Positions 17,094 through 37,978 of a stretch of DNA of 48,520 nucleotides are shown here, in pieces (the first letter of the stretch is position 1; each line of letters opens with the position of its first letter). The DNA lies in IMG/VR virus record IMGVR_UViG_2711768004_000012. The stretch is one strand, 5' to 3'. The position numbers were made by a program, and so were the translations under genes. The notes under the pieces are model-generated. The model saw nothing but the letters and a program-made list of their open reading frames with translations. It had not been told where the DNA came from and searched no databases. Source of the DNA: a virus (Duplodnaviria; Heunggongvirae; Uroviricota; Caudoviricetes).

Positions 17094-17096
17094 GTG

Positions 17097-17273: not shown

Positions 17274-17315
17274 ATGCCCCCCATTAAAAATGGGGCCGAA
17301 GCCCCGTTTGAATGT

Positions 17316-18455: not shown

Positions 18456-18553
18456 AATTAAATATTCCTTAAAAATTTGCGTAATTGTGAATAGATGGAG
18501 TAATGAGCTATCCAGCCCTGACACCAGCTCCCATCCGGAAGCTGACAAATGTG

Positions 18554-19318: not shown

Positions 19319-19422
19319 ATTAGTACCTGGTTTAAGTCTTCCGACAGTTACGCTGCTCACCATCCGGATCGCAGCAATAAAAAAGGCCACCCGAAGGTAG
19401 CCTGTTGTAATAAATGATTTAT

Positions 19423-20538
19423 TTAAATCCCTGCTTTTCTGAATACCTGTGCATCACGCTCACGGAGCTGCTTCAGCGTCAGCCATTCGCCTTTATCGGT
19501 GTAAAATTCATCTGGCGACATACCACCATCCCGAATCAGCTTTGCTCGGCTTTCCCCCACAATCTGTTTTTGTCTGGTGTAAGGCTGACGCAAAAACCAT
19601 TCCCTGTAGGTTGTATCTCCGGCCACCACGCCATCCATGCTGGCCCGCTCAGCCGGGGAAATATCGCGAACATCAATACCCAGTTCCTTCGCTGATTTCA
19701 GAATGAACGTTTCCGTTGAGCGGCAGCAGAAATGAATTTTTCCCGGCCCCTGCAAATAAGGCACGCTGTGACCTACAGGTTTATTATTCAGCGTATATTT
19801 GAGGCGATCCCTGATTCGACATTGTGGCGTAGTACGATTATCAAGCGTTGATAACCATTGCTTACCCTTAATCAAATCATTATTCGCGCTGGCAAAACTC
19901 TCACGGGCAGTAGCAGCAAGATGTCCAACCGCTGTTTTTGCAATGCTGGCCGCATTAGCCCGGCTCATCTGCAATGCACCATCCTGAAATCCCTTACTGA
20001 CATGTCCCCGAATTTTTCTTGCGATCTGCTCATTGGTATCCCCCAGCAAAAAACCCTGACGCACTGTATTTGTTATGCGTCTGAGCCGATCCGCCTCAAG
20101 ATCTGAGGCCCACTCACTGAGCAGTCGTCCCTGGAATGGTCGCGCCATTGCAGCGGCATAAAGTGCATCAGGAGAGATACCAACCAGAGGGTGAACATCA
20201 GCAACAAAATCAGGTAGCATAGAATCAAACAGACTTAACTGATAACCAGCCTCATAAATTGCCAGCTCGTTCAGCTCTCCGGAGAGACTGGTAAACATGC
20301 TGTTAATAGCAGTGCGGTTAACCTCTCTGACGCTCGCCAGAAGTGACTCCAGGCGCTTAACGGTAAAACTACCTGGATCGAGGCTGTCCAGTGCTATCAG
20401 CAGGCGAGCAGTAAGTTCCGCATCGCTGTCATTCAGTATTTTCACCATTCTGGCAGCCACGCCAGTGCTATAGCGGGATATCCAGACTGCATGAGCAATT
20501 GATTCATCACGCAGCCGTTCATTCACGGTTTGCATCAT
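19423..20538 (-). CDS. Head morphogenesis protein (SPP1 gp7 / Mu F-like)
   Basis: 371 aa ORF immediately downstream of, and overlapping, the portal gene; typical position of the minor head protein. Confidence 0.6.
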   Translation of the reverse strand: MMQTVNERLRDESIAHAVWISRYSTGVAARMVKILNDSDAELTARLLIALDSLDPGSFTVKRLESLLASVREVNRTAINSMFTSLSGELNELAIYEAGYQLSLFDSMLPDFVADVHPLVGISPDALYAAAMARPFQGRLLSEWASDLEADRLRRITNTVRQGFLLGDTNEQIARKIRGHVSKGFQDGALQMSRANAASIAKTAVGHLAATARESFASANNDLIKGKQWLSTLDNRTTPQCRIRDRLKYTLNNKPVGHSVPYLQGPGKIHFCCRSTETFILKSAKELGIDVRDISPAERASMDGVVAGDTTYREWFLRQPYTRQKQIVGESRAKLIRDGGMSPDEFYTDKGEWLTLKQLRERDAQVFRKAGI

Positions 20539-21925
20539 TGATTTCCATCAGCATTACACTCTGATTTTTTAATTCATCGATCACTTCCTCTGGACGGGAA
20601 TCCTGATCGATAAATTTCAACGCCTGCAACACCCGAACCGCATCAATCTGACGTATATCACCGCCCTGACGCAATGACTGAACAGCCAGCGCGGAGGATG
20701 AGTCAAACACCTGGGCAGATACATCCAGTTCAGTGCGCACATCCACATTGCCACCGCAACTCTCTCCGATCCATTCCGCCATTATCTGGAGAATATTATC
20801 GAGGGCATCTTCGAGGGAGTTCGCCATTGTATAAAGCGGCGAGTTTTCCTGCATTCGCTCTTCATTAGTCTGATCAACAGATTTGGTGGATGTATTTTCA
20901 GCACGCAGAAGTTTAGCGCCGGCATGACGCATCTGATTTTCCAGCTTCTCAAGTGATGTTTCGCCAGATTCTATCGCTGCGCCACTATGTTCAACATATT
21001 CGAGGCCATTTTTTGTTCTGTCCTCAAAAATCGTAGCGGTGGATGCACCAACCGTCAGTTCTTCATTCCTGTCCAGCCCGTAGGCCACCAGCAATGGAAC
21101 GCGGGCAACATGAAGAATATTGTCCTGCTCGCTCTGGCTTTGCCAGTGCTTGATATTCAGCAAGCCAAGATTAAGCAATGGCGGTGTACCACGCATAAAT
21201 CCTGTTTTCTTCGTGTACAGTGTTACCAGAGGAATATCATCACGGCTGGTATTCCATGACTCATGAAGCGTCCAGACAGATTCGCCATTAGTGCCTTCGC
21301 TACGTCGATAAATTTCAACTCGACGGGGCATAATATGGCGGATCTGCTCCACCTTCTTCTGCCCGAAATCATCACCATCAATAATGATGACCTCTTTTAT
21401 ACGCAAATCAGTGAGAACAACTTTCCCTTTTTCAACTTTCGATTTCCATCCAATAACCTGGCGTGGATTCAGCATCGTAACGTACGGACGACCACCGGTC
21501 GCGTTTTCATCGGCTTTTGTCCGAATCTCTTTCATATCCGTTCGTGGATAGTCCACCAGCGCATGTGCCACACCATACTGAAATGCGAGGCTGAAAAATT
21601 GCTGCGCCCACACATCCAGTCGGCTCCCCTCCATGTCGATATTTTCTGCATATTCCCTGATTTTTGCCGGCGTTTCCTCACTCAATACTGTCGGCTCTGC
21701 AAATATGCGCCCAATATTTTGCTTGATGCTTTCTTCATACACAGGAAGTAGCGTAGCCACAGACAGGCGTTTTTTATAAGCGTCTTCATCTTCGTTAGGC
21801 CATTTTGGGAGATAATTTTCCCCCTGCCTGCGCATTTCAAGCGTACCGCCCATCAGTGCGTCGTTAATATCCCACGCCTCCAGCATATCGTTATAGTCGA
21901 GGTTGGGTGTTGATATATCAGCCAT
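20519..21925 (-). CDS. Portal protein
   Basis: 468 aa acidic ORF directly downstream of the large terminase gene. Confidence 0.75.
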   Translation of the reverse strand: MADISTPNLDYNDMLEAWDINDALMGGTLEMRRQGENYLPKWPNEDEDAYKKRLSVATLLPVYEESIKQNIGRIFAEPTVLSEETPAKIREYAENIDMEGSRLDVWAQQFFSLAFQYGVAHALVDYPRTDMKEIRTKADENATGGRPYVTMLNPRQVIGWKSKVEKGKVVLTDLRIKEVIIIDGDDFGQKKVEQIRHIMPRRVEIYRRSEGTNGESVWTLHESWNTSRDDIPLVTLYTKKTGFMRGTPPLLNLGLLNIKHWQSQSEQDNILHVARVPLLVAYGLDRNEELTVGASTATIFEDRTKNGLEYVEHSGAAIESGETSLEKLENQMRHAGAKLLRAENTSTKSVDQTNEERMQENSPLYTMANSLEDALDNILQIMAEWIGESCGGNVDVRTELDVSAQVFDSSSALAVQSLRQGGDIRQIDAVRVLQALKFIDQDSRPEEVIDELKNQSVMLMEINDANRE

Positions 21926-21927
21926 AA

Positions 21928-23238
21928 TTAAATCCGAAGTGATGTGACTCTTCCGGTCGGTTTGACAATAGGGAATTGCTTAACGATGAAATAACCTCCG
22001 GCATCATTCGGGTGATCATTGCCAGATTTTTTATCAGGCTCCCCCTTCTCATCCCAGACCTGTTGCTCCAGAGATTCGGCATATAACGGGCAACGCTTCA
22101 CATTAACTTTATAGCGACGCTCACCATTGGCATTGCAGAACATTGCATTCATTGAGTTAACGCGATCTTTTACTGGCGGGTTCGAGCTGTTCACCACAAC
22201 GTTAAAACCAGCCTGCTTAAGCTGGGCTATATCCGTCGTACTTGCGTTACTTGATTTTCTGGAATCCCCGGAAGCATCTGGATAAATATAAATTTCCCTC
22301 ACTTTCCGGTAATCATTCCCATCATACAGCCAGAAGCGTTCTTTAATGATGCGGATCATATCCGGCGTATCGTAGGCATTGATGATTTCAGTTACCGCAC
22401 ATGGAAGCCCCAAACGCAGCACATGGACGATTCCCGCCATCTTTCCAACGTTAAAATCCATCCCAATATAAATCGGCTCCCCTGGCTGCTCCACTTCTTC
22501 GCAATTATTCAGTTTCCGGTCAAACTGATGGTAAACAGTACCACTTGTCAGGTTAGTAAACTGTCCTCGAAGATAGGCTTTAATCAGCTCTGGAGGGTAT
22601 GATTCAAGAAGCGAAGGAATGTAATCTGCTGGCAGGTTCTTTTCATTATCGAAAGTAGATGCCTGCACCAGACCATACAGTGAGGCCAGCTCTGTTTTTT
22701 CACGCACGGCTTTAACAAACTGCTCGTAGACAAATTTGAATCCTTCCGGCGTGGTTGTAACGTCAATACCGTTGCGAAGTCCATCAATCTTATAACGCAT
22801 ACGTGCAATTATCTTGCGCCACGCCGTTCTGGCTTTTTCCTTCGGCAAAATGTCCAGTTCATCCACCAACGCATTACCAATTTTGAAACCGACGATCGTT
22901 TGTGGCTTCTCCATCGATCTGCAGATAGTGGTTCCCCGATACTGGCGTCCGTAATAAAAGTGAACCTCTTTATTTCCCTCATTAATTTTTACGTTCAATC
23001 CCCAGTCAGCAGCAACTTCTTCCACTGTAGGGTAAAAAATATCGCGAATTTGGGGATACGTTGGCGCAAAATATCCCTGATTTATACCTGGATGCTCCCA
23101 AATCCCCTTGCATATGCCGCCACACCCAACCCATGTTTTGCCCGAGCCAAAACCAGCAATATAGGCTTTAAATTTATGGGGCATTGAAAGAAATCGCGCC
23201 TGAGGCACATTAAGCGTCGGAGAGATCATCTTCATCAC
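21928..23238 (-). CDS. Terminase large subunit
   Basis: 436 aa; Walker A-like motif AGFGSGKT near the N-terminus; acidic nuclease-type C-terminal half; overlaps the small-subunit gene. Confidence 0.85.
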   Translation of the reverse strand: MMKMISPTLNVPQARFLSMPHKFKAYIAGFGSGKTWVGCGGICKGIWEHPGINQGYFAPTYPQIRDIFYPTVEEVAADWGLNVKINEGNKEVHFYYGRQYRGTTICRSMEKPQTIVGFKIGNALVDELDILPKEKARTAWRKIIARMRYKIDGLRNGIDVTTTPEGFKFVYEQFVKAVREKTELASLYGLVQASTFDNEKNLPADYIPSLLESYPPELIKAYLRGQFTNLTSGTVYHQFDRKLNNCEEVEQPGEPIYIGMDFNVGKMAGIVHVLRLGLPCAVTEIINAYDTPDMIRIIKERFWLYDGNDYRKVREIYIYPDASGDSRKSSNASTTDIAQLKQAGFNVVVNSSNPPVKDRVNSMNAMFCNANGERRYKVNVKRCPLYAESLEQQVWDEKGEPDKKSGNDHPNDAGGYFIVKQFPIVKPTGRVTSLRI

Positions 23239-24304
23239 TCCTTACTCTGGCATCAACCACATTAATATTGATCGCCACAGGCTGGGGATGTTCATTATCT
23301 TCCACCGTTTCGATCTCTTTGCGCAGCTTCTGGTTTTCCATTCTGCGCCGTTCAATTTCCAGTTCCCGTAGCCGCTTATCTGCACATAAAGCCCCGCCAG
23401 CAGAAAACAAACGCAACAATTCACGCCGGGCGGCAGCCTTATCCTCCAGCAGGATCTCAACGCCGAATTTTCCGAATTTTGCCCCTGCATATAATTGCCG
23501 CGCATCCCCATCAAGCAGAGTGGTATCAGCCATATAAAGCTGTCCCGTTCCCTCACCGCAGCACTTCGGGCAGTCCGGATTGGGTATGGCGTTATCAACA
23601 AAGCCGAGGCCTCCATATTCCGGTTCGGGTTTGCCATCTCTGGAAGCCTGCGCCGCTGCCTTGTCGAATTCTGCTATATCGCGCCACTGGTAGAGATGAT
23701 TCTCGCCCCAGCAATAACGGCAGTTAACACGGCGAAATTGTGCAAGCTGATTGGGGTCGGCCAGGACAATAGCCATCAACTGACTCACTAGTAAATCCAG
23801 GTCTGCGGTATAGCGTTTCTGGTACTGATTGCGGAAGTAGCTGATAGCGCGAAAAACCCTGGCATTTCTAAGCATACGACTGGCGTTGCTGTTAGCTGTC
23901 GCACCTTGCCCCTCATAACCGGCTAGTCGGTACGCCTCTGTCGGCTTTTTACCCTGAGCAACAAGCATCGCAAACTTAGCCTGCTGGTCAGAAATGCCGA
24001 ATTCATCGGGACAGAACGAAAATTCCTCCGCGTCGCCCTCATTCAGGCCCGCATCGAATACTGGCTTTTTTTCCTGAGATTTTTCGTTCCGCTTTTGTGC
24101 AGTCTGCGCAGATTTTTTCTGCGCACTTTTTTGCGCAGTTTTGCACATTTCTGTCTGCGCATTTTTCGGAGTTTTTTTGATGTAACGACGGGCTGTTGCG
24201 TAATTCAGTCCCCTTGCTTCACACCATGCCACCGGAGATATACCGGAGCGGGTGTATTCAGCAATATACTCCTGCTGCAACGCCCCCCAGTCCGGTCTGC
24301 TCAT
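23210..24304 (-). CDS. Terminase small subunit (DNA-recognition subunit)
   Basis: 364 aa ORF with N-terminal HTH-like segment (ISPVAWCEARGLNYATARRYIKK) and a basic/charged middle; immediately upstream of, and overlapping, terL. Confidence 0.65.
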   Translation of the reverse strand: MSRPDWGALQQEYIAEYTRSGISPVAWCEARGLNYATARRYIKKTPKNAQTEMCKTAQKSAQKKSAQTAQKRNEKSQEKKPVFDAGLNEGDAEEFSFCPDEFGISDQQAKFAMLVAQGKKPTEAYRLAGYEGQGATANSNASRMLRNARVFRAISYFRNQYQKRYTADLDLLVSQLMAIVLADPNQLAQFRRVNCRYCWGENHLYQWRDIAEFDKAAAQASRDGKPEPEYGGLGFVDNAIPNPDCPKCCGEGTGQLYMADTTLLDGDARQLYAGAKFGKFGVEILLEDKAAARRELLRLFSAGGALCADKRLRELEIERRRMENQKLRKEIETVEDNEHPQPVAININVVDARVRSDEDDLSDA

Positions 24305-24307
24305 CAG

Positions 24308-24559
24308 TTAGTCCTGATTTTTATCCACCCTGAGTAGTTCGCGCAGAGCAAAGGCATCCCCTTTTCTGGCAAGCTTAAACAATGCCGCTCGTAACTCGGC
24401 TTCACCTTTCGCTCTGCCCTTACGGATGGCCGCATAAAAATCTGTCATTGCTTCCCGATTTTCTTTCAGTCGGTTCAGATCAACATCCAGAACGTCAGCG
24501 ATTTGTTGTGCAGTCATCCGGCACGCTGCCAGAGACTCGACTTTCGAATACGGAATCAT
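24308..24559 (-). CDS. Small hypothetical protein with HTH-like segment
   Basis: 83 aa ORF (MTAQQIADVLDVDLNRLKENREAM...) directly upstream of terS; overlaps the 3' end of the upstream gene. Confidence 0.4.
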   Translation of the reverse strand: MIPYSKVESLAACRMTAQQIADVLDVDLNRLKENREAMTDFYAAIRKGRAKGEAELRAALFKLARKGDAFALRELLRVDKNQD

Positions 24560-25445
24560 TTGTCACCCCCATTGATATGCAGGGTGTCTTCTTCCTGTAT
24601 TTTTCGTGAAGGATTTTTACTGCAGCGTTGTTCCAGGTGACCTGATGGTGAATGCGTTTATGACTGGCACCCATAAGTGAGATTTTTACGCACGACGGCG
24701 CATACATGACGGAGTAAAAACTTTTAACGTAGGTTCCGGAATCCAGATACAGCTCGGTCATTCCGCCGCTGTTTTTCTGCGTCTGTTTCTGCCCTAACTG
24801 GACAGCACCGATCGTCATAAACAATTCACCACAGCGACCGAGATTCGTGTACGTATTCACATCCTCGTTAATGCGCCCCATGAATGAGAACGGTCGATCA
24901 ACCGAACAGATAAAGCTGTTCATTGCCTTGCGTTTCACCCACGAAGCATGGCCGCCATTGTCACCAAGAAAATCCCCGCCCTGCGACATAGCGATGGAAA
25001 GAGCAGGTATTGATTCGTAGTACGCAAGCATTTCAGAAAGGATCTCATCCAGTTTCCTTATCGGGAAATAGGCCTGGTCATAGTTGCGATCCACCCGAAA
25101 CTGGAACTCGTGATAATCATCATCGAGCTGAATGAAGTATTTACACCCGACCAGTTTTGCCTGGTCGAAACAGGCATTACGGGCGTAAAAAATTGAGCGG
25201 CGGTCACTAAAATTATCGGCTTCGTCAAAACGACTAGCAATATCGGCTTTGGAAAATACCAGCACCTGTTCACCAAATTCAGCCATGTACTGATGCCGTG
25301 TCTTATCTTCATCATCAACAACGATAAAAATTTTCCCGGTATAGCCAGCACGACGCAACGTCCGGTAAGTCAGAACTTTGTCCGGTCGCCCGTGAGTCAG
25401 AATAAAGGCGCAAAAATCATCACGCATATTCCTCCTCCCCGCCAT
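24495..25445 (-). CDS. Hypothetical protein with DxD-type motif (possible glycosyltransferase-like fold); start may be at MRDDF (25427)
   Basis: 316 aa ORF; motifs IFIVVDDEDKT and YFIQLDDDYHEF resemble GT-A nucleotide-sugar transferase DxD signatures. Assignment is tentative. Confidence 0.4.
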   Translation of the reverse strand: MAGRRNMRDDFCAFILTHGRPDKVLTYRTLRRAGYTGKIFIVVDDEDKTRHQYMAEFGEQVLVFSKADIASRFDEADNFSDRRSIFYARNACFDQAKLVGCKYFIQLDDDYHEFQFRVDRNYDQAYFPIRKLDEILSEMLAYYESIPALSIAMSQGGDFLGDNGGHASWVKRKAMNSFICSVDRPFSFMGRINEDVNTYTNLGRCGELFMTIGAVQLGQKQTQKNSGGMTELYLDSGTYVKSFYSVMYAPSCVKISLMGASHKRIHHQVTWNNAAVKILHEKYRKKTPCISMGVTNDSVFESRVSGSVPDDCTTNR

Positions 25446-26208
25446 GCATGATCTCCACCATGCGCTGCGTCATTCGGACAAATCCATTTTCAATAGCCTG
25501 CTGATAATCAATGATCACCAGCGCCGACTCCTCGAAAAGGCACTGAATTTCAGCGGGGGCATGAGCGTAATAGTCCGCAATTCTGCTGAAATTAAACACC
25601 GTGTGACGTTCTGCTGCACACAGGAGGAATTTCTCAATATCAGGATCAAGGGACGCCGAACGTATCCGGCTGATCAGCTCCTGAGTTTTCGTATCGTCGT
25701 ACAGTTCACTGATATCCGGTTTACCGCCTGACGGCTCATAAACAGGCGTATCAATTTTCGTCGTATACGGCTCCTCCTCATTTCCTGTACCGGGCAAAAC
25801 ATCCGTCAACAGTTCATCAATTTCTGCCGGGATGAAGCCTGTCAGGGAGACATCAAAATCAGCATTGATTAGGTCCGACAGCTCCATCCGCAACAGATCT
25901 TCATCCCAGCCAGCATTCATCGGCAGGCGATTATCTGCCAGGCGGTACGCCTTTTTCTGCTCATCCGTCAGGCCAGACAGAACAATGACCGGAACAGAAT
26001 CCATTTTGAGCATTTCAGCCGCCATAACACGACCGTGACCCGCAATAATTTCGCCCTTTTCGTCAATCAGCACCGGATTAGTCCAGCCGAATTGCTTAAT
26101 ACTTTCTACCAGTTGTGCCACCTGCTCAGTACTGTGCGTCCTGGCGTTGTGCGCATACGGTGACAATTCTTGTAATGGGCGATAGACTATCTTTAATTTC
26201 TCGCTCAT
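25420..26208 (-). CDS. ParB-like nuclease domain protein
   Basis: 262 aa; N-terminal region ...NPVLIDEKGEIIAGHGRVMAA... resembles the ParB N-terminal (sulfiredoxin-like) GxGR-type motif common in phage ParB nucleases. Confidence 0.65.
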   Translation of the reverse strand: MSEKLKIVYRPLQELSPYAHNARTHSTEQVAQLVESIKQFGWTNPVLIDEKGEIIAGHGRVMAAEMLKMDSVPVIVLSGLTDEQKKAYRLADNRLPMNAGWDEDLLRMELSDLINADFDVSLTGFIPAEIDELLTDVLPGTGNEEEPYTTKIDTPVYEPSGGKPDISELYDDTKTQELISRIRSASLDPDIEKFLLCAAERHTVFNFSRIADYYAHAPAEIQCLFEESALVIIDYQQAIENGFVRMTQRMVEIMHGGEEEYA

Positions 26209-26345
26209 ACAGCCTTGCTTTATGAATAAAACGCACCCCAGCAGCCAGTGCTACTGGGGGCGGAGGTGTTGCTGGTAAAGTTAGGTATTGGATCAATGAG
26301 TGAGTCAACATAATATTAAACTCACAATTATAAATCAGCCATATA

Positions 26346-27821
26346 TTAGGAGCGCCAAAAAAAACCTGAAAACAATATAATAACAGGATAAATTTCAAGG
26401 CGACCAAGAATCATAGCTATGCACATTAAATATTTTGCAATGTCATTAAGCACTCCGAATGACGATGCAGTAGCCCCAAAACCTAATCCCATATTATTAA
26501 TACATGCAGCCACTGTTGCAAATGATGTAAGAAAATCATATCCCATACCATTTAACACCAGTATAAAAAACACCGTGAAGAGAGTATAAAGAAAAAAGAA
26601 ACTCCATACAGACCTCATTACACGATCTGTAACTATCTTCCCTCCTACATTTACACTCAACAACGCTCTGGGATGAGAAAGCTGATTTATCTCGTGTTTG
26701 CTTTGTTTGAAAAGTATAAGAAATCGAAGTGACTTAATTCCACCACAGGTTGAACCTATACATCCCCCAAAGAAACTTGACAACAGCAAAAACACTATCG
26801 TGTGCGTGGGCCAGTTTGCATAATCCTGCGTAGCTAAACCATTATCAGTGAGCATGGAGCTGGCAAGAAAAAACGAATGAATAAAACTTCCATGCAAGTC
26901 ATACATACCTATATGCCAGACCTGGAAAGAGGTAACAATGATCACCCCTAAGGCTATTAACAGAAAGAAACGAAGTTCAATATCTCTGATTAAAGGTTTT
27001 ATCGTTTTTCTGCTAATAACAATATACCAAAGAGTGAAGTTGAAAGCCGATAGCAGGGAAAAAGAACCAGCCACCAGCTCAACCAAATAGTTATTAAAAT
27101 ATCCGATACTCTCGCTATGAGTTGAGAAACCACCAAGCGAAACTGTGGAAATCCCGTGACAAATAGCATCAAACAAAGGCATTCCTGCAAGTCTATAACA
27201 GACAATACAAGCAATACCTAATAAAGAATAAGTTATCCACAGTGTCCGTGACGTATCGGCCAGGCGGGGAGTGAGTTTGTCATCCTTAAATGGCCCCGGC
27301 ATTTCTGACTGATAAAGCTTTGCACCACCAATACCCAATAATGGCAATACTGCAACCGCCAGAACAATAACTCCTAAACCACCTATAAAATTTAACTGTG
27401 ACCGATAGTACAAATATGCCCGAGGTAATGAACTAACATCATCAATTACAGTTGCTCCTGTTGTTGTTATTCCAGAAACCCCTTCAAACAGAGCATCAAT
27501 GAACGTTAAATTAAGTTCTGAGTCAATCCATAAAGGGAATGCACTAATAACAGAAAACAAAATCCAAAACATTACAATTATAATAAACCCATCACGGGTA
27601 CGTAATTGAATGCCAGATTTCTTAGTTGTATACCACGCTCCGCCACCAATGCAAAAAAATATAACGAAAGTTATAAAGAAAACGAACAGGCTTTTTTCTT
27701 TATAAAACAATGCTACAACCATTGGTGGCAACATTGAAAGACTATAGAGCCAAACCAGGAACCCACACATATGAGTAACAACTCTTACATGAGATGTATT
27801 CATATCTAAATATTCTTTCAA
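26346..27821 (-). CDS. trkG: TrkH/TrkG-family K+ uptake membrane protein (moron); possible start at MNTSHVRVV (27803)
   Basis: 491 aa polytopic membrane protein matching my recollection of Rac TrkG (MNTSHVRVVTHMCGFLVWLYSL...); markedly AT-rich compared with flanking phage genes. Confidence 0.8.
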   Translation of the reverse strand: MKEYLDMNTSHVRVVTHMCGFLVWLYSLSMLPPMVVALFYKEKSLFVFFITFVIFFCIGGGAWYTTKKSGIQLRTRDGFIIIVMFWILFSVISAFPLWIDSELNLTFIDALFEGVSGITTTGATVIDDVSSLPRAYLYYRSQLNFIGGLGVIVLAVAVLPLLGIGGAKLYQSEMPGPFKDDKLTPRLADTSRTLWITYSLLGIACIVCYRLAGMPLFDAICHGISTVSLGGFSTHSESIGYFNNYLVELVAGSFSLLSAFNFTLWYIVISRKTIKPLIRDIELRFFLLIALGVIIVTSFQVWHIGMYDLHGSFIHSFFLASSMLTDNGLATQDYANWPTHTIVFLLLSSFFGGCIGSTCGGIKSLRFLILFKQSKHEINQLSHPRALLSVNVGGKIVTDRVMRSVWSFFFLYTLFTVFFILVLNGMGYDFLTSFATVAACINNMGLGFGATASSFGVLNDIAKYLMCIAMILGRLEIYPVIILFSGFFWRS

Positions 27822-27940
27822 TTATAACCACCTTGCTGCAATATTATGATTATACTGTATAAAATTTAACTCCTCTTAGATCTTACTTCACTGTTCCTTA
27901 TGAAACAATCATCAAAATGAATCATATTGTAGTTAAGATT

Positions 27941-28262
27941 TTACTTTAAACACTGCTCGGTTATGTATTGCTGAGCACCTTCAAGTTGGGCCTGCATCAT
28001 TACCAGTCGTTCCCGGAGGGTGAAATAATCCCGTTCAGCGGTGTCTGCCAGTCGGGGGGAGGCTGCATTATCCACGCCGGAGGCGGTGGTGGCTTCACGC
28101 ACTGACTGACAGACTGCTTTGATGTGCAACCGACGACGACCAGCGGCAACATCATCACGCAGAGCATCATTTTCAGCTTTCGCATCAGCTAACTCCTTCG
28201 TGTATTTTGCATCGAGCGCAGCAACATCACGCTGACGCATCTGCATGTCAGTAATTGCCGCG
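27941..28262 (-). CDS. Rz i-spanin (5' end in N run)
   Basis: C-terminal ...AALDAKYTKELADAKAENDALRDDVAAGRRRLHIK..., typical Rz coiled-coil; contains embedded Rz1 in the +1 frame. Confidence 0.8.
28000..28185 (-). CDS. Rz1 o-spanin lipoprotein (embedded in Rz)
   Basis: 61 aa MRKLKMMLCVMMLPLVVVGC TSKQ... with lipobox VVGC and a Pro-rich mature region (PPPPPAWIMQPPPDW), fully nested in Rz in another frame. Confidence 0.8.
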   Translation of the reverse strand: MRKLKMMLCVMMLPLVVVGCTSKQSVSQCVKPPPPPAWIMQPPPDWQTPLNGIISPSGNDW

Positions 28263-28512
28263 NNNNNNNNNNNNNNNNNNNNNNNNNNNNNNNNNNNNNN
28301 NNNNNNNNNNNNNNNNNNNNNNNNNNNNNNNNNNNNNNNNNNNNNNNNNNNNNNNNNNNNNNNNNNNNNNNNNNNNNNNNNNNNNNNNNNNNNNNNNNNN
28401 NNNNNNNNNNNNNNNNNNNNNNNNNNNNNNNNNNNNNNNNNNNNNNNNNNNNNNNNNNNNNNNNNNNNNNNNNNNNNNNNNNNNNNNNNNNNNNNNNNNN
28501 NNNNNNNNNNNN
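28263..28512. other. Run of N (250 nt) covering the R 3' end and Rz 5' end
   Basis: Literal n characters. Confidence 1.
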
Positions 28513-28898
28513 TTGATATCGCCCTGGTTTATTTTGCGAAGAAGCGTCGATGTTCTGAAATTGCCAGCACCCACGTTGTAAACGAATGAGTAAAGAGCGC
28601 CGCGCGTTGTTTCCGGTATATCGACTTTGATGTACGGGTTAATTTGTCTGGCGACAGTGGCAAGGTCTTTATTCAAGAGTGTTTTGCATTCTGCTTTGGT
28701 ATACGTTTTACCGAGCATGATGTCTTTTCCTGTATGCCCGTGACATACAGTCCATACACCAACAATATCTTTGTATGGTATGTAGCTGACACCTTCCAGA
28801 CCATCGTTACCACTTGGGCCAGTGATTAACACTGATGCTATAGCAATTGCTCCGCCACCAATAGCAGCAGCAACGACTTTTCGTAATGATGGAGGCAT
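28513..28898 (-). CDS. SAR-endolysin (phage 21 R-type lysozyme), 3' end in N run
   Basis: [44 protein letters not shown]...: N-terminal Gly/Ala-rich signal-anchor-release domain followed by lysozyme-like region; ATGA overlap with holin. Confidence 0.8.
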
Positions 28899-29113
28899 TA
28901 TTCACCTCTCGCAGCCTTGCGCTTATCTTCTTTAATCTTGAAATAAAGGTTTGTCAGGTACGTCAGCAGGCCAAATACCAGACTACCCAGCACACCGATT
29001 GCAGCCCACTGTGACGGAGTTACTCTATCGAGCAACTGTAAAAACCAGTAGCCAGCACTGCCTGCGGAGGTGCCGTAGGCAATGCCTGTTGAAATTTTGT
29101 CCATGGATTTCAT
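28898..29113 (-). CDS. Pinholin (phage 21 S-type) with dual-start motif MKSMDK
   Basis: [71 protein letters not shown]: two TMDs, charged C-terminus, Met-Lys-x-Met dual start typical of holin/antiholin pairs. Confidence 0.8.
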
Positions 29114-29214
29114 AGCCTCACCTCCGCACGGAACGGATGGCATAGTTATTATGTGTAGGCTTTCAGACACATCAATCAGAGCCTTAATTGATATATATGC
29201 TGGAGACGATGCAA

Positions 29215-29239
29215 TATAAAAAGCTCGCCGTAGCGAGCT
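29215..29239 (-). terminator. Candidate intrinsic terminator downstream of lipoprotein gene 29365-29760
   Basis: Minus strand: stem agctcgc / gcgagct (loop 4 nt) followed by TTTTAT. Confidence 0.5.
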
Positions 29240-29364
29240 AATAAAATGTATTTCTCTGATATTATGTTTATTTGTATTAGCTCAGACTTGACATCACAGG
29301 TTTCGTATATAGAACATCATCAAATCTGTCAGTTTGCTATGAATGAGATATAGTAATTGAAGAG

Positions 29365-29760
29365 CTAACCTCGCATGTCAAAGCCAGATTTCTGAAAATC
29401 TCTGTAGACTTCCGGATTGTTGAAGGCCGGAAATTTGGCTTTATGAGCTGCGGACTTTATCGCTTCGCAATAGGCTTTATCACCGTTACTGGTAGATATT
29501 TTTAACGCCGTGCCATCCTGAGAGAATTCCATATGCAACCTGCATTTTTTCCCTTTCCAGTTATGCGGCTCATCAAGTTTGGCATTAATTGCAGCTCTGA
29601 TTCCCCGCGCTTGCGCCCCCCATTCATCCTGATCATCCCAGCGTCCTGAACTGCAACTACCTGTAGCAGTAGTTTTGTGGCAATCTGAAGGGTGTAAAGG
29701 TGTGCATCCCGCAACAAAACCGACCCAAAAAGTCAACATAACGATTTTCTTTAATCCCAC
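29365..29760 (-). CDS. Lipoprotein with TolA C-terminal domain (domain III)-like region
   Basis: 131 aa; signal peptide plus lipobox (FVAGC); mature part ...KKCRLHMEFSQDGTALKISTSNGDKAYCEAIKSAAHKAKFPAFNNPEVYRDFQ... resembles TolA-III (two Cys, PxxxxVY motif). Confidence 0.7.
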   Translation of the reverse strand: MGLKKIVMLTFWVGFVAGCTPLHPSDCHKTTATGSCSSGRWDDQDEWGAQARGIRAAINAKLDEPHNWKGKKCRLHMEFSQDGTALKISTSNGDKAYCEAIKSAAHKAKFPAFNNPEVYRDFQKSGFDMRG

Positions 29761-29910
29761 TTCTTGCTCCTCAATCCATTAAAATCTCAGCAATAGTAGT
29801 TGTTACGTCCGCCACTGGCTCAGAGCTGACTATCCGCTAAATTTAGCTCAGTGCCGTAGCTGTGTCAGAACAAACCTAAGCCGAAACCGTTTATTACAAA
29901 ACAATAAATA

Positions 29911-30339
29911 TCAGGGTTTAAAATCCAGCACCCCATTTTGAAATACTTTATATACTTCCGGCGAAGGGGGGGCAGGTATATCAGCATTCTTTATCGCATT
30001 CATCGCTTCACGACATAAATCGAGGTCTCCACTTTCTCTTTTAACCTCCAGTAGAAGGCCATTCGGGGCCATATGCATTCTCAGTGTACACTCTTTTCCT
30101 GAATACTTACTCGCATCCCCGAACTGTTTTTCGATGGCGCTCTTGATTTGATGGGCATACAGACGGATATCCTCACTAACATCAGAAGTACGTTCAGATG
30201 AACTCACATACTGTGTCTCTATTGCTTTATCGGAGTAATATGATGTACGGTCATGATAATTTGTCGATACAGCATCAGTGCACCCGATAATAATCCCACT
30301 AATAATCAACGTAAGAATTGATGCGCTACGAAAACCCAT
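29911..30339 (-). CDS. Lipoprotein with TolA domain III-like C-terminus (closer TolA mimic)
   Basis: 142 aa; signal peptide plus lipobox (IIGC); C-terminus YAHQIKSAIEKQFGDASKYSGKECTLRMHMAPNGLLLEVKRESGDLDLCREAMNAIKNADIPAPPSPEVYKVFQNGVLDFKP closely parallels the E. coli TolA C-terminus as I recall it (YAGQIKSAIESKFYDASSYAGKTCTLRIKLAPDGMLLDIKPEGGDPALCQAA...PSQAVYEVFKNAPLDFKP). Confidence 0.75.
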   Translation of the reverse strand: MGFRSASILTLIISGIIIGCTDAVSTNYHDRTSYYSDKAIETQYVSSSERTSDVSEDIRLYAHQIKSAIEKQFGDASKYSGKECTLRMHMAPNGLLLEVKRESGDLDLCREAMNAIKNADIPAPPSPEVYKVFQNGVLDFKP

Positions 30340-30936
30340 TTTTCCTCACATATGTCATATAGTAAAGGATTATATATACCGTTGTTTTGGACGCTCAAAC
30401 AGCGAATCAGATCAAATAAAACGCACATTTGTTAACATTTACACAAAGTCTGCGTGGGATATTCTGAAAGAATATCCATAATGTGGAGAGAATCTATTGA
30501 AGTGCATGGTGCCGGGTGCCTCCCGGTGAACAAAATGTTCGTGATACCTGTCGGCGACAGAAAAGGTTAATGGTATCACCCCACCGCACAGGGGGATTCA
30601 CCATGCAGGAGTTTTCTTAGCAAACTCACTGCGCGCCCGGCAACTCCCAACCACATAAAATGCGGAGTTTGTGGCATTTATGCATATAACTCGCAGGAAT
30701 TATCTTAAAAAACTGATGTCGATCCGGATTAAAAAGAAGCAGGTCATCATCAGATGACTGGAAAAAAGGAAAACAAAAAATACTCATCATACAGTTTTGA
30801 TTGCAGGGATGAGCCTGCTATGCACAATATGCAGAATATAAGCAAGATAAAAATATGCAGGCATATTATTTCGGATCTTGTTATTAACACAACCTTTTTA
30901 ATAATCATTTGGCATACAATAAACCAGCCCAAAAAG

Positions 30937-30956
30937 AACCGCCTAAACAGGCGGTT
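30937..30956 (-). terminator. Second candidate intrinsic terminator in the Q-to-lysis leader (minus-strand sense)
   Basis: Minus strand: aaccgcc tgttta ggcggtt followed by CTTTTT. Confidence 0.4.
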
Positions 30957-31276
30957 GGTCAATACAAAGGATGCTTCGTCTTTATTATAGTAATCTGAGG
31001 CGTCGGGTGTCTTGTATCAGACAACATATTGTCCCGCTAAACAGCGAATTACAAACCACCCTGCAATGATCTCTCATCTCATTTTATATGAGTTGACGAC
31101 ATCAGGATAACGCATCATCAGCCCCTGCCAAGAAATATCAAAACTCCCGCCAGCAATGTGTTATCACAATATTGTAAAAAAAACACAGCACCGAAACTAT
31201 AACTGGTCTCTGTTATAATTTGGAGCAGAAAGACCAGTTGCCCAACTAGCAGCATTCTCCCCTGCTTTCCTGACGT

Positions 31277-31303
31277 AAAAAAACCGCATTAAGCGGTTTT
31301 TTT
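31277..31303 (-). terminator. Intrinsic terminator downstream of Q (tR'-like; A-run / hairpin / T-run, potentially bidirectional)
   Basis: gtaaaaaaaccgcattaagcggtttttttacg: 7-bp stem aaaccgc / gcggttt flanked by A7 and T7; about 80 nt downstream of the Q stop, as expected for the late-promoter terminator that Q-modified RNAP reads through. Confidence 0.7.
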
Positions 31304-31306
31304 ACG

Positions 31307-31383
31307 ATGTCCATGTCTGCAATCCGCCTCGCGATACAGCTTTGCGAAGCATAGCAAAATTGAAGCAGTTTATACGTAAGAAA
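31307..31383 (-). promoter_or_regulatory. Candidate late promoter (pR'-like) / Q-utilisation region between Q stop and terminator
   Basis: Position only (between Q stop and the tR'-like hairpin); -10-like TATAAA on the minus strand at 31374-31369. No strong consensus identified. Confidence 0.35.
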
Positions 31384-31926
31384 TCAAGCCATTTTCTCAG
31401 CAAATGATTCACGCATGGGAATATATAGGGCATACTCAGCAACAGCTAACCAATTAGCAATCCGTTTTTCGCATGTGCTAAAACACCACTCTGGGTGTGC
31501 ATCATTTAGCAATTCAGCCATTTTGCGCTTAGTCATCCCCCGCCCTTCATAGCGTTGCCGGAGAATGCAAATCAATCCTGGATGCTCTGCCAGCACCTCA
31601 CTTATGACTCGATCAATACATAACGCCTCTGCATCAGTACAATGCGCCAGCCAGCTCTTTTGCTTGCCGTTGATCATCTCTCGCAAAAACGCTTCCAGCT
31701 CAGCTTTCTCTATTCCCGCTTTTTTCATTCTGCGCAGGGCTTCATTAATGGCTGTTTTCGTCAGTTTTTTGGATGCCAACAACTGATTGAACATATTCCC
31801 TGACCTGCCACCGCCAATATACGACCAGCGCCCCCACATACGTAGTTTTCCCTGAATCCAGACACTTTCCAGCGTGGTGAGGCGAAGGTGTTCTCCGCTT
31901 TTTCCTGTATTCGTTGGGTAAATCAT
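31384..31926 (-). CDS. Late-gene antiterminator Q-like protein
   Basis: 180 aa ORF at the end of the nin region, immediately upstream of an intrinsic terminator and the lysis cassette; sequence is not lambda Q-like, so the call rests on position and size. Confidence 0.55.
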   Translation of the reverse strand: MIYPTNTGKSGEHLRLTTLESVWIQGKLRMWGRWSYIGGGRSGNMFNQLLASKKLTKTAINEALRRMKKAGIEKAELEAFLREMINGKQKSWLAHCTDAEALCIDRVISEVLAEHPGLICILRQRYEGRGMTKRKMAELLNDAHPEWCFSTCEKRIANWLAVAEYALYIPMRESFAEKMA

Positions 31927-32213
31927 AAATGACCTTTCTTTCTCCAGATTTCTTGTGTGCGAAAAACCCCTTCAGCATGCATCAGGCGCAATTCTTCTTT
32001 GGTGTAATCGCTGGTTTTTACCCGCCCGTCGATTAGATCGTGGCATGAGCTACAGGCTATCGCCGCCTGCATATCATGTGGTTTTGTCGCTGTTCCGCAC
32101 GTCCCCGCCAGCCTGTAATGCGCCAGCACAGAGGTTTCGGGATTGTGATTGCAGTAGCCAGGGATTCTGATCTGGCACATCTGGCCTTTAGCCGCTTTAC
32201 GTAAATTCACCAT
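31923..32213 (-). CDS. YbcO-like (DUF1364) nin-region protein, Cys/His metal-binding
   Basis: 96 aa with CQIRIPGYCNHNPETSVLAHYR...IACSSCHDLIDGR, resembling DLP12 YbcO-type proteins. Confidence 0.55.
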   Translation of the reverse strand: MVNLRKAAKGQMCQIRIPGYCNHNPETSVLAHYRLAGTCGTATKPHDMQAAIACSSCHDLIDGRVKTSDYTKEELRLMHAEGVFRTQEIWRKKGHL

Positions 32214-32812
32214 TACGCAAACTCCAGTAGTTGTGCGGCCACATTTTCAACTTCCTCCTGAGAGGAGAATTTACGGAACAGAATCCAGTTCCACAGCACA
32301 TTCAGTACAGATTTATAAACCTGCTGAAACTCGACTTCGTCCATATTCGCAAAAGCGATGGATTTTGCCCGACGCCCACGGCTACCGTCCGGATAAATAT
32401 GCTCGGTGTAAAATCCGGCCTGAATGGTTACCCACTCGCGGAAAGCCTCAAACGACTTTAGCAACGCCGTATCCCGGGTTCTACGAGTCGCAACGGTGTT
32501 AAGGTATTGCTCTGCGGCATCACTCAGGGCTGGCGTGTGTTCCCGACCAACTGATTCGCACAGGTAATCAACGAAACCAGACAGCAGTTCTCGTTCGCGA
32601 GGCGTGATCGCCCCACCGACCGGAGTCCAGTAATCGAATCCCAGTTGCAGGAGTTTGAAAAAACGCTTGTGGAATGCGTAGTTACGCACACGCTTAAAGT
32701 CTGCGTGTATCCACTCACCTATTTTGATTTGATGCAGAAAATCGCAACTCTCCGGCGTCGCCGGGAGAAGTAAACCAGAAGAGGTTTGTTTGACCAGTTG
32801 TATATGCGCCAT
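32213..32812 (-). CDS. Nin-region hypothetical protein (DUF1367-like)
   Basis: 199 aa ORF, 1-nt overlap with the downstream gene; phage backbone composition. Confidence 0.5.
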   Translation of the reverse strand: MAHIQLVKQTSSGLLLPATPESCDFLHQIKIGEWIHADFKRVRNYAFHKRFFKLLQLGFDYWTPVGGAITPRERELLSGFVDYLCESVGREHTPALSDAAEQYLNTVATRRTRDTALLKSFEAFREWVTIQAGFYTEHIYPDGSRGRRAKSIAFANMDEVEFQQVYKSVLNVLWNWILFRKFSSQEEVENVAAQLLEFA

Positions 32813-33092
32813 TTCTCAATCTCTCGATGGCGCAGCGCAGCAGATGCCAGTTGTTCAGGCTGACGAATAAAGTATAAATAAACTGGCTATGGTGTAAAGC
32901 CCCACATAGCATGAACAAACACTACATATCAAATAGCTGGTACAAGGATAGAAATACGACACTTATTATTAAAAACGATTAGATAAATTACATTTTAATG
33001 TTATGCAAAAGTTCTTTTTTATCATAACATTTCAATAAAAGCATTACAGATGCAATCATCCCGTCATCATCAATTATTTAAGGTGGTTAAAC

Positions 33093-33179
33093 ATGGAAAA
33101 TAACAAGTTCGCACATCTCGCTCCTTTTTTATCCGTAATCCTTTTCGCTTGTTGTTTTATATGGGCATTATTTTTATAA
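33093..33179 (+). CDS. Candidate small hydrophobic peptide (28 aa) MENNKFAHLAPFLSVILFACCFIWALFL
   Basis: ATG preceded by strong SD AAGGTGG at 33080-33086 with 6-nt spacing; single predicted TM helix; inside the AT-rich island. Confidence 0.35.
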   Translation: MENNKFAHLAPFLSVILFACCFIWALFL

Positions 33180-33587
33180 AGTAGCCACATGATAAGTTGC
33201 TGGAATCATATTTCCCACTCAAGTCATTAACATTTGATAAGATATATCTAAAAGGACGCCTTTACATTATTTATGCGTATATAATTTATTTATATACACA
33301 GTAAAGGTATCCTGGGAAAATATTTATCGTTAAAAAATACATCATAAATAATTAAGCTGAAATTTCAGAACACAACTAATACACACAATAAGGTTCAGTA
33401 ACAGTAATCTATGTGGACTACATCGAGATTTTTTGATTAAACTTTAATAACTTATTCCTAACACACAGAATGCATAAACTAAAAGTAAAACAAATAGTTA
33501 TACGAAAAACAACCATATTTATTCTATCTTCTCCTCTAATCAACATATCAATTATGTGTTTCATAACAGCTTGACATAACCCTCCAA

Positions 33588-33610
33588 AAGATGCATTTTT
33601 AATGCATGTT
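33588..33610 (+). promoter_or_regulatory. NsrR-type operator-like inverted repeat upstream of the yeaR-like gene
   Basis: aagATGCATttttaATGCATgtt: first half AAGATGCATTT is identical to the NsrR half-site consensus as I recall it; ATGCAT-based 11-1-11 palindrome; a perfect TTGACA lies at 33571-33576. Confidence 0.5.
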
Positions 33611-33625
33611 TTGGAGGAGGTGGTT

Positions 33626-33964
33626 ATGACACACAAGAGAATTCCTAAAGATTGGGTAATCAAACGCTCAACTCCGTTCTTCACAAAAGAGAACGTACCT
33701 TCAGCGTTATTAACACATCATAATACAGCAGCAGGTGTTTTTGGGCAGTTGTGCGTAATGGAAGGCACTGTAACATATTATGGTTTTACTGATGAGAATG
33801 CTACTGAACCGGAGATAAAAGTAGTCATTAATGCTGGCGCTTTTGCAACAAGCCCACCACAATACTGGCACCGTGTTGAACTAAGCGATGATGCTCAGTT
33901 TAATATTAACTTTTGGGTCGCTCCAGACTTTTCGGGCGAAAAAGTCTATAGCACCAAAAAATAG
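33626..33964 (+). CDS. YeaR-like DUF1971 protein (moron)
   Basis: 112 aa MTHKRIPKDWVIKRSTPFFTKENVPSALLTHHNTAAGVFGQLCVMEGTVTYYGF...FNINFWVAP parallels E. coli YeaR (…RSTPFWNK…MHGAVKYLGY…YFNIDFFVAP); strong SD GGAGGAGGTGG upstream. Confidence 0.7.
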   Translation: MTHKRIPKDWVIKRSTPFFTKENVPSALLTHHNTAAGVFGQLCVMEGTVTYYGFTDENATEPEIKVVINAGAFATSPPQYWHRVELSDDAQFNINFWVAPDFSGEKVYSTKK

Positions 33965-33993
33965 ATGATCATATTAAAAATGCTTTAACAGTC

Positions 33994-34031
33994 AGACCCG
34001 GCAGGGCTATCCCCGACGGGTCTCATTTTTG
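33994..34031 (+). terminator. Candidate terminator after the yeaR-like gene
   Basis: agacccg...cgggtct inverted repeat followed by cattttt; the loop is long (16 nt), so strength is uncertain. Confidence 0.4.
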
Positions 34032-34584
34032 TAAATATATTGGTTCTACATTGACAGGAGACTTCAACCATAAGAAGTAATCTGAATACTTGAGCAATAA
34101 ATTTACTTAAGATTAATGAGCGCACCTTGCCGGACAAAGATAAACCAAGGTAACACCTTTTTTCTAGCCAGTATGTAATCAATCAGAAAGCCGCTCCATA
34201 AGAACAACAGCAAGACAATAAATTGCCATTACAGCCGCAATAGCCAGCGCACATTTGAGAACCAGCACGACAACCCCCTGTATTAGACGCACACCAGTCC
34301 TGATAAATATGAGGCTGTCTCGTCAGTGATTCAATACAACTATTGGGTATAGTTTCTGTGATTTTATTCTGTAGAAATGGAACACAACAACCAGTCACCA
34401 CCAGCACTTCCTTAAATGCTCTAAGTCAGAAACAAGCCAACATTTTAGTCCGCTTTGAGCGATCTGCAGACATTGCTAGCAGCCTTCTGTGTGAATTCTC
34501 AGGGAGCAGGTCGGCATAGCATCACGTTGAGGCTCTTACCCTACTTGTTCACACCAACCCTAACTCCACAGACTGATTCATAAA

Positions 34585-35586
34585 TTAGTAATCTGCGTGT
34601 TTCGCACTTTTCAGAAATGCTTTCATATTTTCATTAGGTCGCTCAATTTCGAAGTTACTTCCATATAACTCTTGTAATTTTGGCCATAACTTACTTAATA
34701 ACCCTCTCCTGCGATAAAATGGATGTATCCAAACGGTAGATAGGTACGGAGAATTTGCATTTGAATTGTTTATTGTGACCAGCCCAACTAAACATTGTCG
34801 ATAACCACTATTATCCATTGATTGTATTTCTTCGACGAATGGATACGCGATTACATCAGTCCAACCATGATCGGTTGTATCCCATTGCATTCCGTCATGA
34901 CATTCCTTCGACTGATAGCGGCGTAAAGCTACACACGCGAGCTTTTGCCAATCTGGAGAATTAATTGTGATCTCTTCATCGTATGACGCGCCTATTGGAG
35001 CGGGTATTGGTCTGATTAATCCAGCATGGCATTCATCATAGAACTTCATGTTTCCCTCAGAAACGTTGTGTACGTTGGGTTGCTCCATGTGTGCGCCATT
35101 CAAAAATAGCTCTGATAGTAGTGTATCTACACTGTAATCTTTATTGATTATTGTCGGCTTAGAGTTTTTCTTATTAAGGCCGCGAGTAACGATTTTTTGA
35201 TCAATGTTAACAACATGGAATAATCCGTCGGGGAGGCTAGCGAACCACGATGGGGCATCGGACCAGAATAGCATGCCTTTTGTACTTCTTAAGAGTTTAA
35301 TTAAGTTAATACAAGCTTCTTCACTAGTCTTGCCGTTGATGCGAAGTATGTTAGGACTAAAGTAATATTCATCCATATCAGGGAATGCAGCTTCGCAAAA
35401 CTCCTGTACATAATTTAGCACCTGGATTCTACAGAGATCATCATAGCTGGTAATAACTAAGGGGGTATCTTCATTACTATTATGATTATCAATAATGCAA
35501 TCTATAGCGAGACTTACTGCTTTGCGTATCACTTCAGTTGAATCTAACGACTCTAAAAATTTTGTCTTTCGTGTGCGAATATCCAT
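34585..35586 (-). CDS. Hypothetical protein with GNAT-like acetyltransferase C-terminal domain
   Basis: 333 aa; C-terminus ...CLVGLVTINNSNANSPYLSTVWIHPFYRRRGLLSKLWPKL... fits GNAT motif A (beta strand then R-x-x-G-x-hydrophobic); AT-rich; 15 nt downstream of the preceding gene (operon). Confidence 0.5.
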   Translation of the reverse strand: MDIRTRKTKFLESLDSTEVIRKAVSLAIDCIIDNHNSNEDTPLVITSYDDLCRIQVLNYVQEFCEAAFPDMDEYYFSPNILRINGKTSEEACINLIKLLRSTKGMLFWSDAPSWFASLPDGLFHVVNIDQKIVTRGLNKKNSKPTIINKDYSVDTLLSELFLNGAHMEQPNVHNVSEGNMKFYDECHAGLIRPIPAPIGASYDEEITINSPDWQKLACVALRRYQSKECHDGMQWDTTDHGWTDVIAYPFVEEIQSMDNSGYRQCLVGLVTINNSNANSPYLSTVWIHPFYRRRGLLSKLWPKLQELYGSNFEIERPNENMKAFLKSAKHADY

Positions 35587-35601
35587 GTATGACCTGCGCT
35601 A

Positions 35602-36562: not shown

Positions 36563-36762
36563 ACGATGTAACGCTCCCTTGTATCAATTGCGCAACTATT
36601 ATACCACAGCGAAATACAGGGCATAACCTGCCTCCTTAAACTAACATACCATGAGCCAGCAATGTCCGCTATTGGCACAAAGCGGACAACCACGCTAGCT
36701 CTCCCCTGTGCCAGAAAAATGTCAATTTACATATGAACTAATGCTCTTTGATCTAGTAACGT

Positions 36763-37179: not shown

Positions 37180-37194
37180 AAGCGCCTCCGGCAA

Positions 37195-37956: not shown

Positions 37957-37978
37957 AAAAATTTCCTCCCGGTAAAAA

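Follow-up and report, generated by a model that had tools for sequence, protein, structure and literature searches.

An intact trkG as probable lysogenic-conversion cargo of a full-length, ttcA-integrating Rac prophage

The 48,520-nt stretch of viral DNA analysed here (the window) very probably carries a functional trkG as lysogenic-conversion (moron-type) cargo of a full-length, ttcA-integrating Rac prophage. Sequence comparison identifies the gene as trkG itself, and not merely as a trkG-like gene as the first-pass annotation had called it. The gene is already known and ordinary, at its usual place after the Rac lysis genes, and its promoter, control by H-NS and transport activity have already been characterised in K-12. 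What the window provides is a clean reference, in which trkG is seen in its original setting, in the post-Rz cargo slot of a complete prophage. The features of the region are as follows.

25420..26208, minus strand: full-length ParB_N-domain protein of 262 aa (Pfam ParB_N), the downstream boundary of the cargo module.
26226..26259, minus strand: intrinsic-terminator-like hairpin and tail (stem-loop 26236-26259), from a terminator scan and RNA folding.
26251..27940, minus strand: trkG cargo module, ~1690 bp and 37% GC, delimited by homology breakpoints.
26346..27803, minus strand: trkG CDS, 485 aa (ATG at 27803, TAA at 26346-26348), encoding the membrane subunit through which the Trk system translocates K+.
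27804..27940, minus strand: 5' intergenic region of trkG, 137 nt from the Rz stop to the trkG start.
27941-28246, minus strand: Rz i-spanin gene (Pfam Phage_lysis, 158 bits; "lysis protein" in the NCTC10444 annotation), the upstream boundary of the module.
28000-28185: Rz1, embedded in Rz.

Along the minus strand the genes are ordered holin, lysozyme, Rz/Rz1, trkG, the ParB_N protein, a TAGT glycosyltransferase, and the small and large terminases, which agrees with the earlier placement of the transporter between Rz and a ParB-like gene. The lysozyme gene is partly N-masked (28263-28512), and the 5' end of Rz runs into the same masked stretch. The uninterrupted ORF spans 26346..27821 on the minus strand; RefSeq annotates the identical sequence as a 485-aa protein that starts with the ATG at 27803. 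Because this is the start, the range of 26346-27940 originally reported for the gene takes in, besides the CDS, the 137 nt of 5' spacer that separate it from the Rz stop.

The first reading of the ORF as a full-length TrkH/TrkG-family transporter was borne out by the profile searches. The Pfam TrkH model (PF02386) matched residues 40-483 of the 485-aa protein at 483 bits (E 1e-144, cutoff 27), and the NCBIfam TrkH-family model TIGR00933 reached 415 bits (cutoff 331), scores that put family membership far beyond chance. TrkH of V. parahaemolyticus (3pjz, 4j9u) was colinear with the protein over residues 4-485 and 7-485, respectively (E 2e-121). The four M1-P-M2 repeats could be recognised by their filter glycines, G116 (TTTGAT), G225 (LGGFS), G322 (DNGLA) and G439 (NNMGLG), all of which align with those of the Vibrio protein, and the D3M2b intramembrane loop GGCIGSTCGGIK and the conserved R468 (GRLEI) were also present. 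The roles ascribed to the pore, loop and D327 residues are those given in PMC9898762, some of them as that paper reports them from TrkH structure papers.

Within this family the protein groups with TrkG and not with TrkH. It scored 452 bits with the TrkH equivalog model NF008020, under the cutoff of 866, it has the Na+-dependence residue D327, and it is nearly identical to K-12 TrkG (b1363, P23849; cryptic Rac). TrkH, an E. coli core protein with structures solved for V. parahaemolyticus (3PJZ, 4J9U), belongs to the same fold family, has the same length, aligns with TrkG in full-length colinear fashion, and has in common with it the glycines of all four pore loops, the gating loop within the membrane, the conserved arginine and the TrkA partner. 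It is, however, a paralogue and not an orthologue, with a published identity of 41% (PMC9898762). TrkG differs from it in needing Na+ for K+ uptake and in taking up Na+, and its gene is AT-rich and phage-borne whereas trkH is a core gene.

The comparison with K-12 trkG that had been proposed as a check yielded 483 of 485 identical residues (99.6%), the differences being S330N and C458Y, in an alignment that had no gaps and showed neither stops nor frameshifts in the gene. The protein is WP_001097893.1, which is also encoded by NCTC10444 and O78 strain 3. We therefore see next to no chance that this copy of trkG has decayed or lost its function, the outcome that interruptions relative to a functional TrkG/TrkH would have signalled. 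Nothing was found in favour of this reading, and its sole caveat is the two amino acid differences from the characterised allele. Against it are the uninterrupted 485-aa frame, the occurrence of the identical protein in other complete genomes, and the fact that N330 and Y458 are both the residues of the nearest outgroups.

S330N is three residues away from D327, which, with the three glycines checked, was invariant in all 60 TrkG-clade members. Y458 was found in 55 of those 60 and, among the Escherichia alleles sampled, in E. ruysiae, E. albertii and E. fergusonii, and C458 in K-12 and two other sampled E. coli genomes. Since Y458 is present in the outgroups and in most of the clade, C458 is the derived state. 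Thus, of the two alleles, that of the window (N330, Y458) keeps the clade-wide Y458, and it is the K-12 laboratory allele (S330, C458) that carries a derived residue.

Over positions 9000-33000 the window was 100% identical to a Rac prophage of the ttcA type, that of E. coli NCTC10444 (NZ_LR134092.1), from whose RefSeq annotation the gene names used here were taken (coordinate offset between window and locus, 2288). As the window spans tfaR to intR, it contains essentially the whole of a Rac-family prophage; the att sites fall outside it. In the NCTC10444 annotation the early region comprises integrase, excisionase, recET, kilR, sieB, a repressor pair and the ydaTUV replication genes, and late control is represented by a DUF1367/DUF1364/DUF1133 (Q-type) block. 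The lysis genes (holin, lysozyme, Rz) are followed by trkG, the ParB-like gene and TAGT, then by the packaging and head genes (terminases, portal, head genes and a P22-type capsid) and the tail genes (tail tube, tape measure, tail tip, Lom and tail fibre). The annotated head, tail, lysis and replication gene set of this prophage is complete, so the earlier description of an otherwise intact phage stands at the level of annotation. There were no tRNA genes in the window. Full-sized Rac-like prophages have already been described in the literature.

Membership of the Rac family was evident from a region of intR, xisR, ralR, recET, racC, kilR, sieB and ydaSTUV type that was colinear with K-12. By blastn, window positions 40899-48520, with the intR, recET, kilR and sieB region, were 98.7% identical to the K-12 Rac, and positions 37507-40030 were 98.3% identical. 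When the K-12 Rac locus was compared directly with the window by blastn, K-12 counterparts were nevertheless found for only 16.6 of the 48.5 kb. The first-pass annotation had stated that morphogenesis genes are largely missing from the K-12 remnant, and this proved correct: K-12 lacks window segments 3909-12637 (tail genes), 14398-25954 (tail tube, head, terminase, TAGT and the C-terminus of the ParB-like protein) and 28263-37506 (lysozyme, holin and the Q region). Three deletions have cost K-12 the genes for lysis, Q, terminase, head and tail that the window prophage retains. A 2.3-kb Rz-trkG-ynaK island was left between the 11.6-kb and ~9-kb deletions, in which trkG has the same neighbours as in the window, an Rz remnant upstream and ynaK downstream. 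The latter is an N-terminal remnant comprising codons 1-87 of the ParB-like gene, the K-12 match stopping at window position 25955. Given the complete prophage in the window, the K-12 arrangement can be read as an island left by the flanking deletions.

The edges of the trkG cargo were defined by comparison with related prophages. Those of XH990 and PM7 have essentially identical holin-lysozyme-Rz cassettes followed by iss and by a DUF1398 gene, respectively, and homology with both stops at the Rz stop (27941); the last ~25 codons of Rz (27941-28016) have diverged from rzpD-type copies. On the other side, E. coli PapRG-04-4 has a 94%-identical ParB-TAGT-terminase module, in which the ParB-like gene is annotated as intact, together with a different lysis cassette and no trkG. 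Homology with it breaks at ~26250, within the terminator-like hairpin. These two breaks place the module at ~26251-27940, its 3' end coinciding with the hairpin. PapRG-04-4 came from a search of E. coli genomes. When the phage collection was searched with the ParB-like gene for a close relative lacking trkG, all 10 close matches carried trkG and the remaining matches were less than 62% identical. No relative was found in which Rz directly abuts the ParB-like gene, so a documented example of a clean empty site is lacking.

The composition of trkG is foreign relative to the surrounding phage genes. The CDS has a GC content of 38.0% (GC3 32.5%), its 5' spacer 25.5% and its 3' spacer 41.6%, as compared with 53.3% for Rz, 49.6% for the ParB-like gene, 51.3% for the small terminase and 47% for the whole window; the remark that the gene is strongly AT-rich thus holds against both flanks. 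Schlösser et al. 1991 (cited in PMC9898762) had already identified trkG in the Rac of K-12 as a foreign gene of low GC content. The interpretation as a cargo gene put forward at the outset is consistent with this composition, with the variability of the slot after Rz among related phages, with the homology breaks at both edges, with the absence of the gene from PapRG-04-4, and with the hairpin that follows it.

By its position the module fills the slot behind Rz in which lambdoid phages classically carry cargo. Lambda bor and iss-type morons occupy the same place, directly 3' of Rz and before the packaging genes, and they resemble trkG in foreign composition and probably also in having an own promoter (for trkG, from K-12 data) and a terminator (predicted for trkG). 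There are also differences. The bor/iss genes, like the DUF1398 gene, are small and on the opposite strand, whereas trkG is 1.46 kb long, encodes a polytopic protein and is co-oriented with the late operon; bor and iss affect serum resistance, while trkG alters ion physiology.

The 137-nt 5' spacer is identical base for base in K-12 (columns 1-137). Genomic SELEX identified a constitutive sigma-70 promoter at K-12 trkG, among very few in the K-12 prophages, and its authors concluded that the gene came into Rac along with its own promoter (PMC5811629). Based on these data for the identical sequence, the promoter region of trkG would lie within 27804..27940. When 25900-28400 was scanned for sigma-70 consensus promoters, 5 sites were obtained compared with 4.4 +/- 2.9 in shuffled sequence, and because this is no more than in the shuffles, the promoter is not placeable by such a scan. 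The single match upstream of trkG, TTTAAA-18-TATGAT at 27950..27921, was weak and not above chance. The AT-rich 5' spacer is likely an H-NS target.

The hairpin downstream of trkG has a GC-rich stem of 10-13 bp and a 4-nt loop, followed by the U-rich UGCGUUUUAU. It lies 87 nt 3' of the trkG stop and, with its tail, 18 nt 5' of the ParB-like start. Its predicted fold of -25.2 kcal/mol (z = -4.2) was matched in stability by none of 200 shuffles. Based on this modelling, trkG is predicted to have its own transcription terminator.

The physiology of TrkG has been studied with the K-12 allele, the only one for which TrkA- and SapD-dependent, Na+-activated K+ uptake has been published (PMC9898762). 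According to the same paper, K+ uptake by K-12 TrkG depends on Na+, which the protein takes up as well, D327 is implicated in the Na+ dependence, TrkA is common to TrkG and TrkH, and TrkG is able to replace TrkH. Promoter-reporter activity has been shown for K-12 trkG, which H-NS and StpA repress partly, without silencing it (PMC9898762). Since the upstream spacer is identical and the key residues are kept, we consider these properties transferable to the window allele with high confidence, and it is from K-12 that its expression, membrane insertion and transport are extrapolated.

Under this scheme the constitutive sigma-70 promoter of trkG would drive its transcription in the lysogen, which H-NS/StpA acting on the AT-rich DNA would dampen without silencing it. 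TrkG would insert in the inner membrane, form a pore of the TrkH type with four M1-P-M2 repeats, pair with the host-encoded TrkA RCK ring, and owe its ATP dependence to SapD/TrkE; as trkA and sapD are absent from the window annotation, host partners would be needed. The resulting transporter may mediate Na+-activated K+ uptake and some Na+ uptake, such that the lysogen would gain a second Trk route able to substitute for core TrkH. Because trkG is read in the same direction as the late operon around it (lysis to trkG to terminase), late transcripts should also cross it, and Q-antiterminated transcription would probably read through the gene during lytic growth.

This last point bears on whether trkG is kept mainly for the benefit of the phage, with any benefit to the lysogen secondary, a reading that we consider improbable. 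It would suppose high, late Q-antiterminated expression and a K+/Na+ flux that adjusts cytoplasmic K+ or membrane potential during assembly, thereby affecting virion yield or the timing of holin-triggered lysis. The location of trkG inside, and in the orientation of, the late string holin-lysozyme-Rz-trkG-ParB-TAGT-terminase is as this reading would have it, and so is the conservation of the Rz-trkG junction (the 3' end of Rz and the 5' spacer) even with the very divergent E. albertii allele of trkG (84% nucleotide identity, dS 0.92). In addition, among 50,697 phage records TrkH-family genes were essentially absent beyond ten that carry trkG (nine ON470xxx vB_EcoS records and ON032529), the other matches being bacterial contigs or unannotated metagenomic fragments, and the near-absence of Trk-type genes means that their persistence in the Rac lineage needs a reason. 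However, trkG is kept at 99.5% identity in remnants that are incapable of forming virions (K-12, BL21), and it is found on conjugative plasmids in four genera, which argues for a benefit to the cell. Its own constitutive promoter in K-12 (PMC5811629) and the strong terminator-like hairpin that follows it likewise speak against a primarily lytic role. There is a small chance that the cation flux matters in lytic growth besides lysogenic conversion, tuning holin triggering or burst size.

The ten phage records were considered as proof of virion formation by trkG-carrying phages and rejected, because the one paper found for the ON470xxx set, on vB_EcoS-683R6, deals with phages that had been located in clinical-isolate genomes.

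Cargo of use to the lysogen remains the preferred reading of trkG, and the distribution of the gene shows how widely it is carried. A search of 5426 complete E. coli genomes with a 1732-bp query segment detected trkG DNA in 1551 of them, and ~71% were without it. Identity reached at least 99% in 1516 records. The 24-kb morphogenesis-lysis block (9000-33000) was at least 80% covered in 667 of the same 5426 genomes. The high identity of trkG across E. coli may in part reflect recent spread rather than selection.

Deeper comparison was provided by the E. albertii type strain, which has a divergent trkG allele (93% protein and 84% DNA identity, 38% GC). The island around it has decayed and also contains an NleF-like gene. 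Homology to the window begins inside the 3' end of Rz and ends at the trkG stop codon. Between the window and E. albertii alleles dS was 0.92 and dN 0.043, and the resulting dN/dS of 0.047 at this divergence indicates long-term purifying selection on TrkG and an old linkage of Rz with trkG. Among Escherichia trkG alleles dN/dS was 0.07-0.10, on very few changes.

These values also bear on the proposal that trkG is a selectively neutral passenger, dampened by H-NS and hitch-hiking with a successful prophage, which would make no measurable contribution because TrkH, Kup and Kdp already meet the K+ needs of the cell. K-12 grows better with TrkH than with TrkG, which is a minor contributor, and the repression of trkG by H-NS (both PMC9898762) and the large share of E. 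coli genomes lacking the gene point the same way. We nonetheless judge a neutral passenger very unlikely, given the protein constraint over a dS of ~0.9, the intactness of all pore residues, the survival of trkG between independent flanking deletions in K-12 and its acquisition by conjugative plasmids. Moreover, expression of trkG in K-12 is similar to that of trkH, whose loss it complements (PMC9898762).

With regard to origin, the TrkG clade is spread across Enterobacterales, where it is cellular. This makes the phage copy a captured representative of a family of cellular paralogues. Identity to the window TrkG was 79% in E. fergusonii, 77% in Citrobacter, 76% in Pectobacterium, 70-72% in Enterobacter, 68% in Buttiauxella, 62-66% in Serratia and 61-63% in Morganella and Xenorhabdus. 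No donor could be named, as the best non-Rac homologue was the 79%-identical E. fergusonii gene, with homology confined to the ORF. The chromosomal genes (E. fergusonii, Enterobacter, Buttiauxella, Serratia, Morganella and Xenorhabdus; 61-79%) have D327 and the pore glycines in common with the phage copy but are not phage-borne. That of Enterobacter cloacae is in a core context, in the ftsP/plsC/parC neighbourhood, and has a native GC content of 57%, that of E. fergusonii, at 42% GC, is close to porin genes in a chromosomal islet that is AT-rich, and that of Serratia, at 45% GC, is in an island.

A fragment made up of Rz (annotated as "lysis protein") and trkG was found on the Citrobacter freundii plasmid pA18-1 (L035, 9001-11155) and on 14 other plasmids, and the plasmid fragment is 99.6% identical to the corresponding module in the window. 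These plasmids are large, mostly conjugative, and come from E. coli, Citrobacter, Klebsiella and Enterobacter. Around the copy in pA18-1 lie IS26, IS5 and Tn3-family transposases and an ars operon. The presence of the Rz-trkG fragment on plasmids of the last three genera shows that plasmids have taken trkG outside Escherichia.

A divergent trkG allele was identified in E. albertii NBRC 107761 (L016, 3819-5462; 38% GC), with 93% amino acid and 84% nucleotide identity to the window gene, a dS of 0.92 and a dN/dS of 0.047. The 3' end of Rz and the 5' spacer are still present upstream of this allele, which lies within a decayed island bounded by copC/copD/yebY-like genes on one side and rsmF on the other, and has as neighbors a phosphoesterase gene and a gene for an NleF-like effector. 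Relative to K-12, the window trkG has two adjacent nucleotides changed in each of two codons: codon 330 (26814-26816), which is AAC in the window and AGT in K-12 (N330 versus S), and codon 458 (26430-26432), which is TAT in the window and TGC in K-12 (Y458 versus C). The remaining four coding differences are single and synonymous.

Directly downstream of trkG are two genes that immediately precede the small terminase (24495-26208, - strand):

25420-26208, - strand, full-length ParB_N-domain protein, 262 aa
within 24495-26208, - strand, TAGT protein, 316 aa (Pfam TAGT, "TET-associated glycosyltransferase", 119 bits)

In K-12 the ParB-like gene, full-length in the window, is reduced to its first 87 codons (ynaK). 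Based on distant ParB-like homologues in Lactobacillus phages (~41% identical), which are annotated beside a "beta-glucosyl-HMC-alpha-glucosyltransferase", the ParB-like and TAGT pair may represent a conserved DNA-modification module.

The other classic cargo slot of lambdoid phages, which has the Q-type region on one side and the holin on the other, contains a pair of small ORFs that carry the C-terminal domain of TolA:

29365-29760, - strand, TolA C-terminal domain (Pfam, 55 bits)
29911-30339, - strand, TolA C-terminal domain, 142 aa (Pfam, 83 bits)

Both have lipoprotein-signal-like N-termini (...GC...) and were found again in another prophage (PM7, L005); the annotation of phage mEp460 also includes a "TolA protein". 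Speculatively, these ORFs could imitate the TolA of the host or compete with it.

In the RefSeq/PGAP annotation of the source genome, NCTC10444 (L003), the ParB-like ORF is labeled an "incomplete ynaK pseudogene" (28239-28496) and the 142-residue TolA ORF an "incomplete tolA pseudogene" (32200-32460). These labels apparently stem from the naming references, the truncated K-12 YnaK and full-length TolA, and the same ParB-like gene carries an intact annotation in strain PapRG-04-4.

The window contains five runs of N, totaling 1611 bases:

2954-3267
3909-4491
6698-7073
8591-8678
28263-28512

Among the masked parts are a portion of the lysozyme gene and the Rz 5' end; the masked sequence was readable in L003. 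In NCTC10444, the stretch that lies just outside the left edge of the window (L003, 1-2227) shows the tail-fiber end of the prophage adjoining sitBCD, which encode an iron/manganese transporter, whereas pinR, ydfK and ynaM follow that end in K-12 Rac; the tail-fiber-side junction therefore varies by strain.
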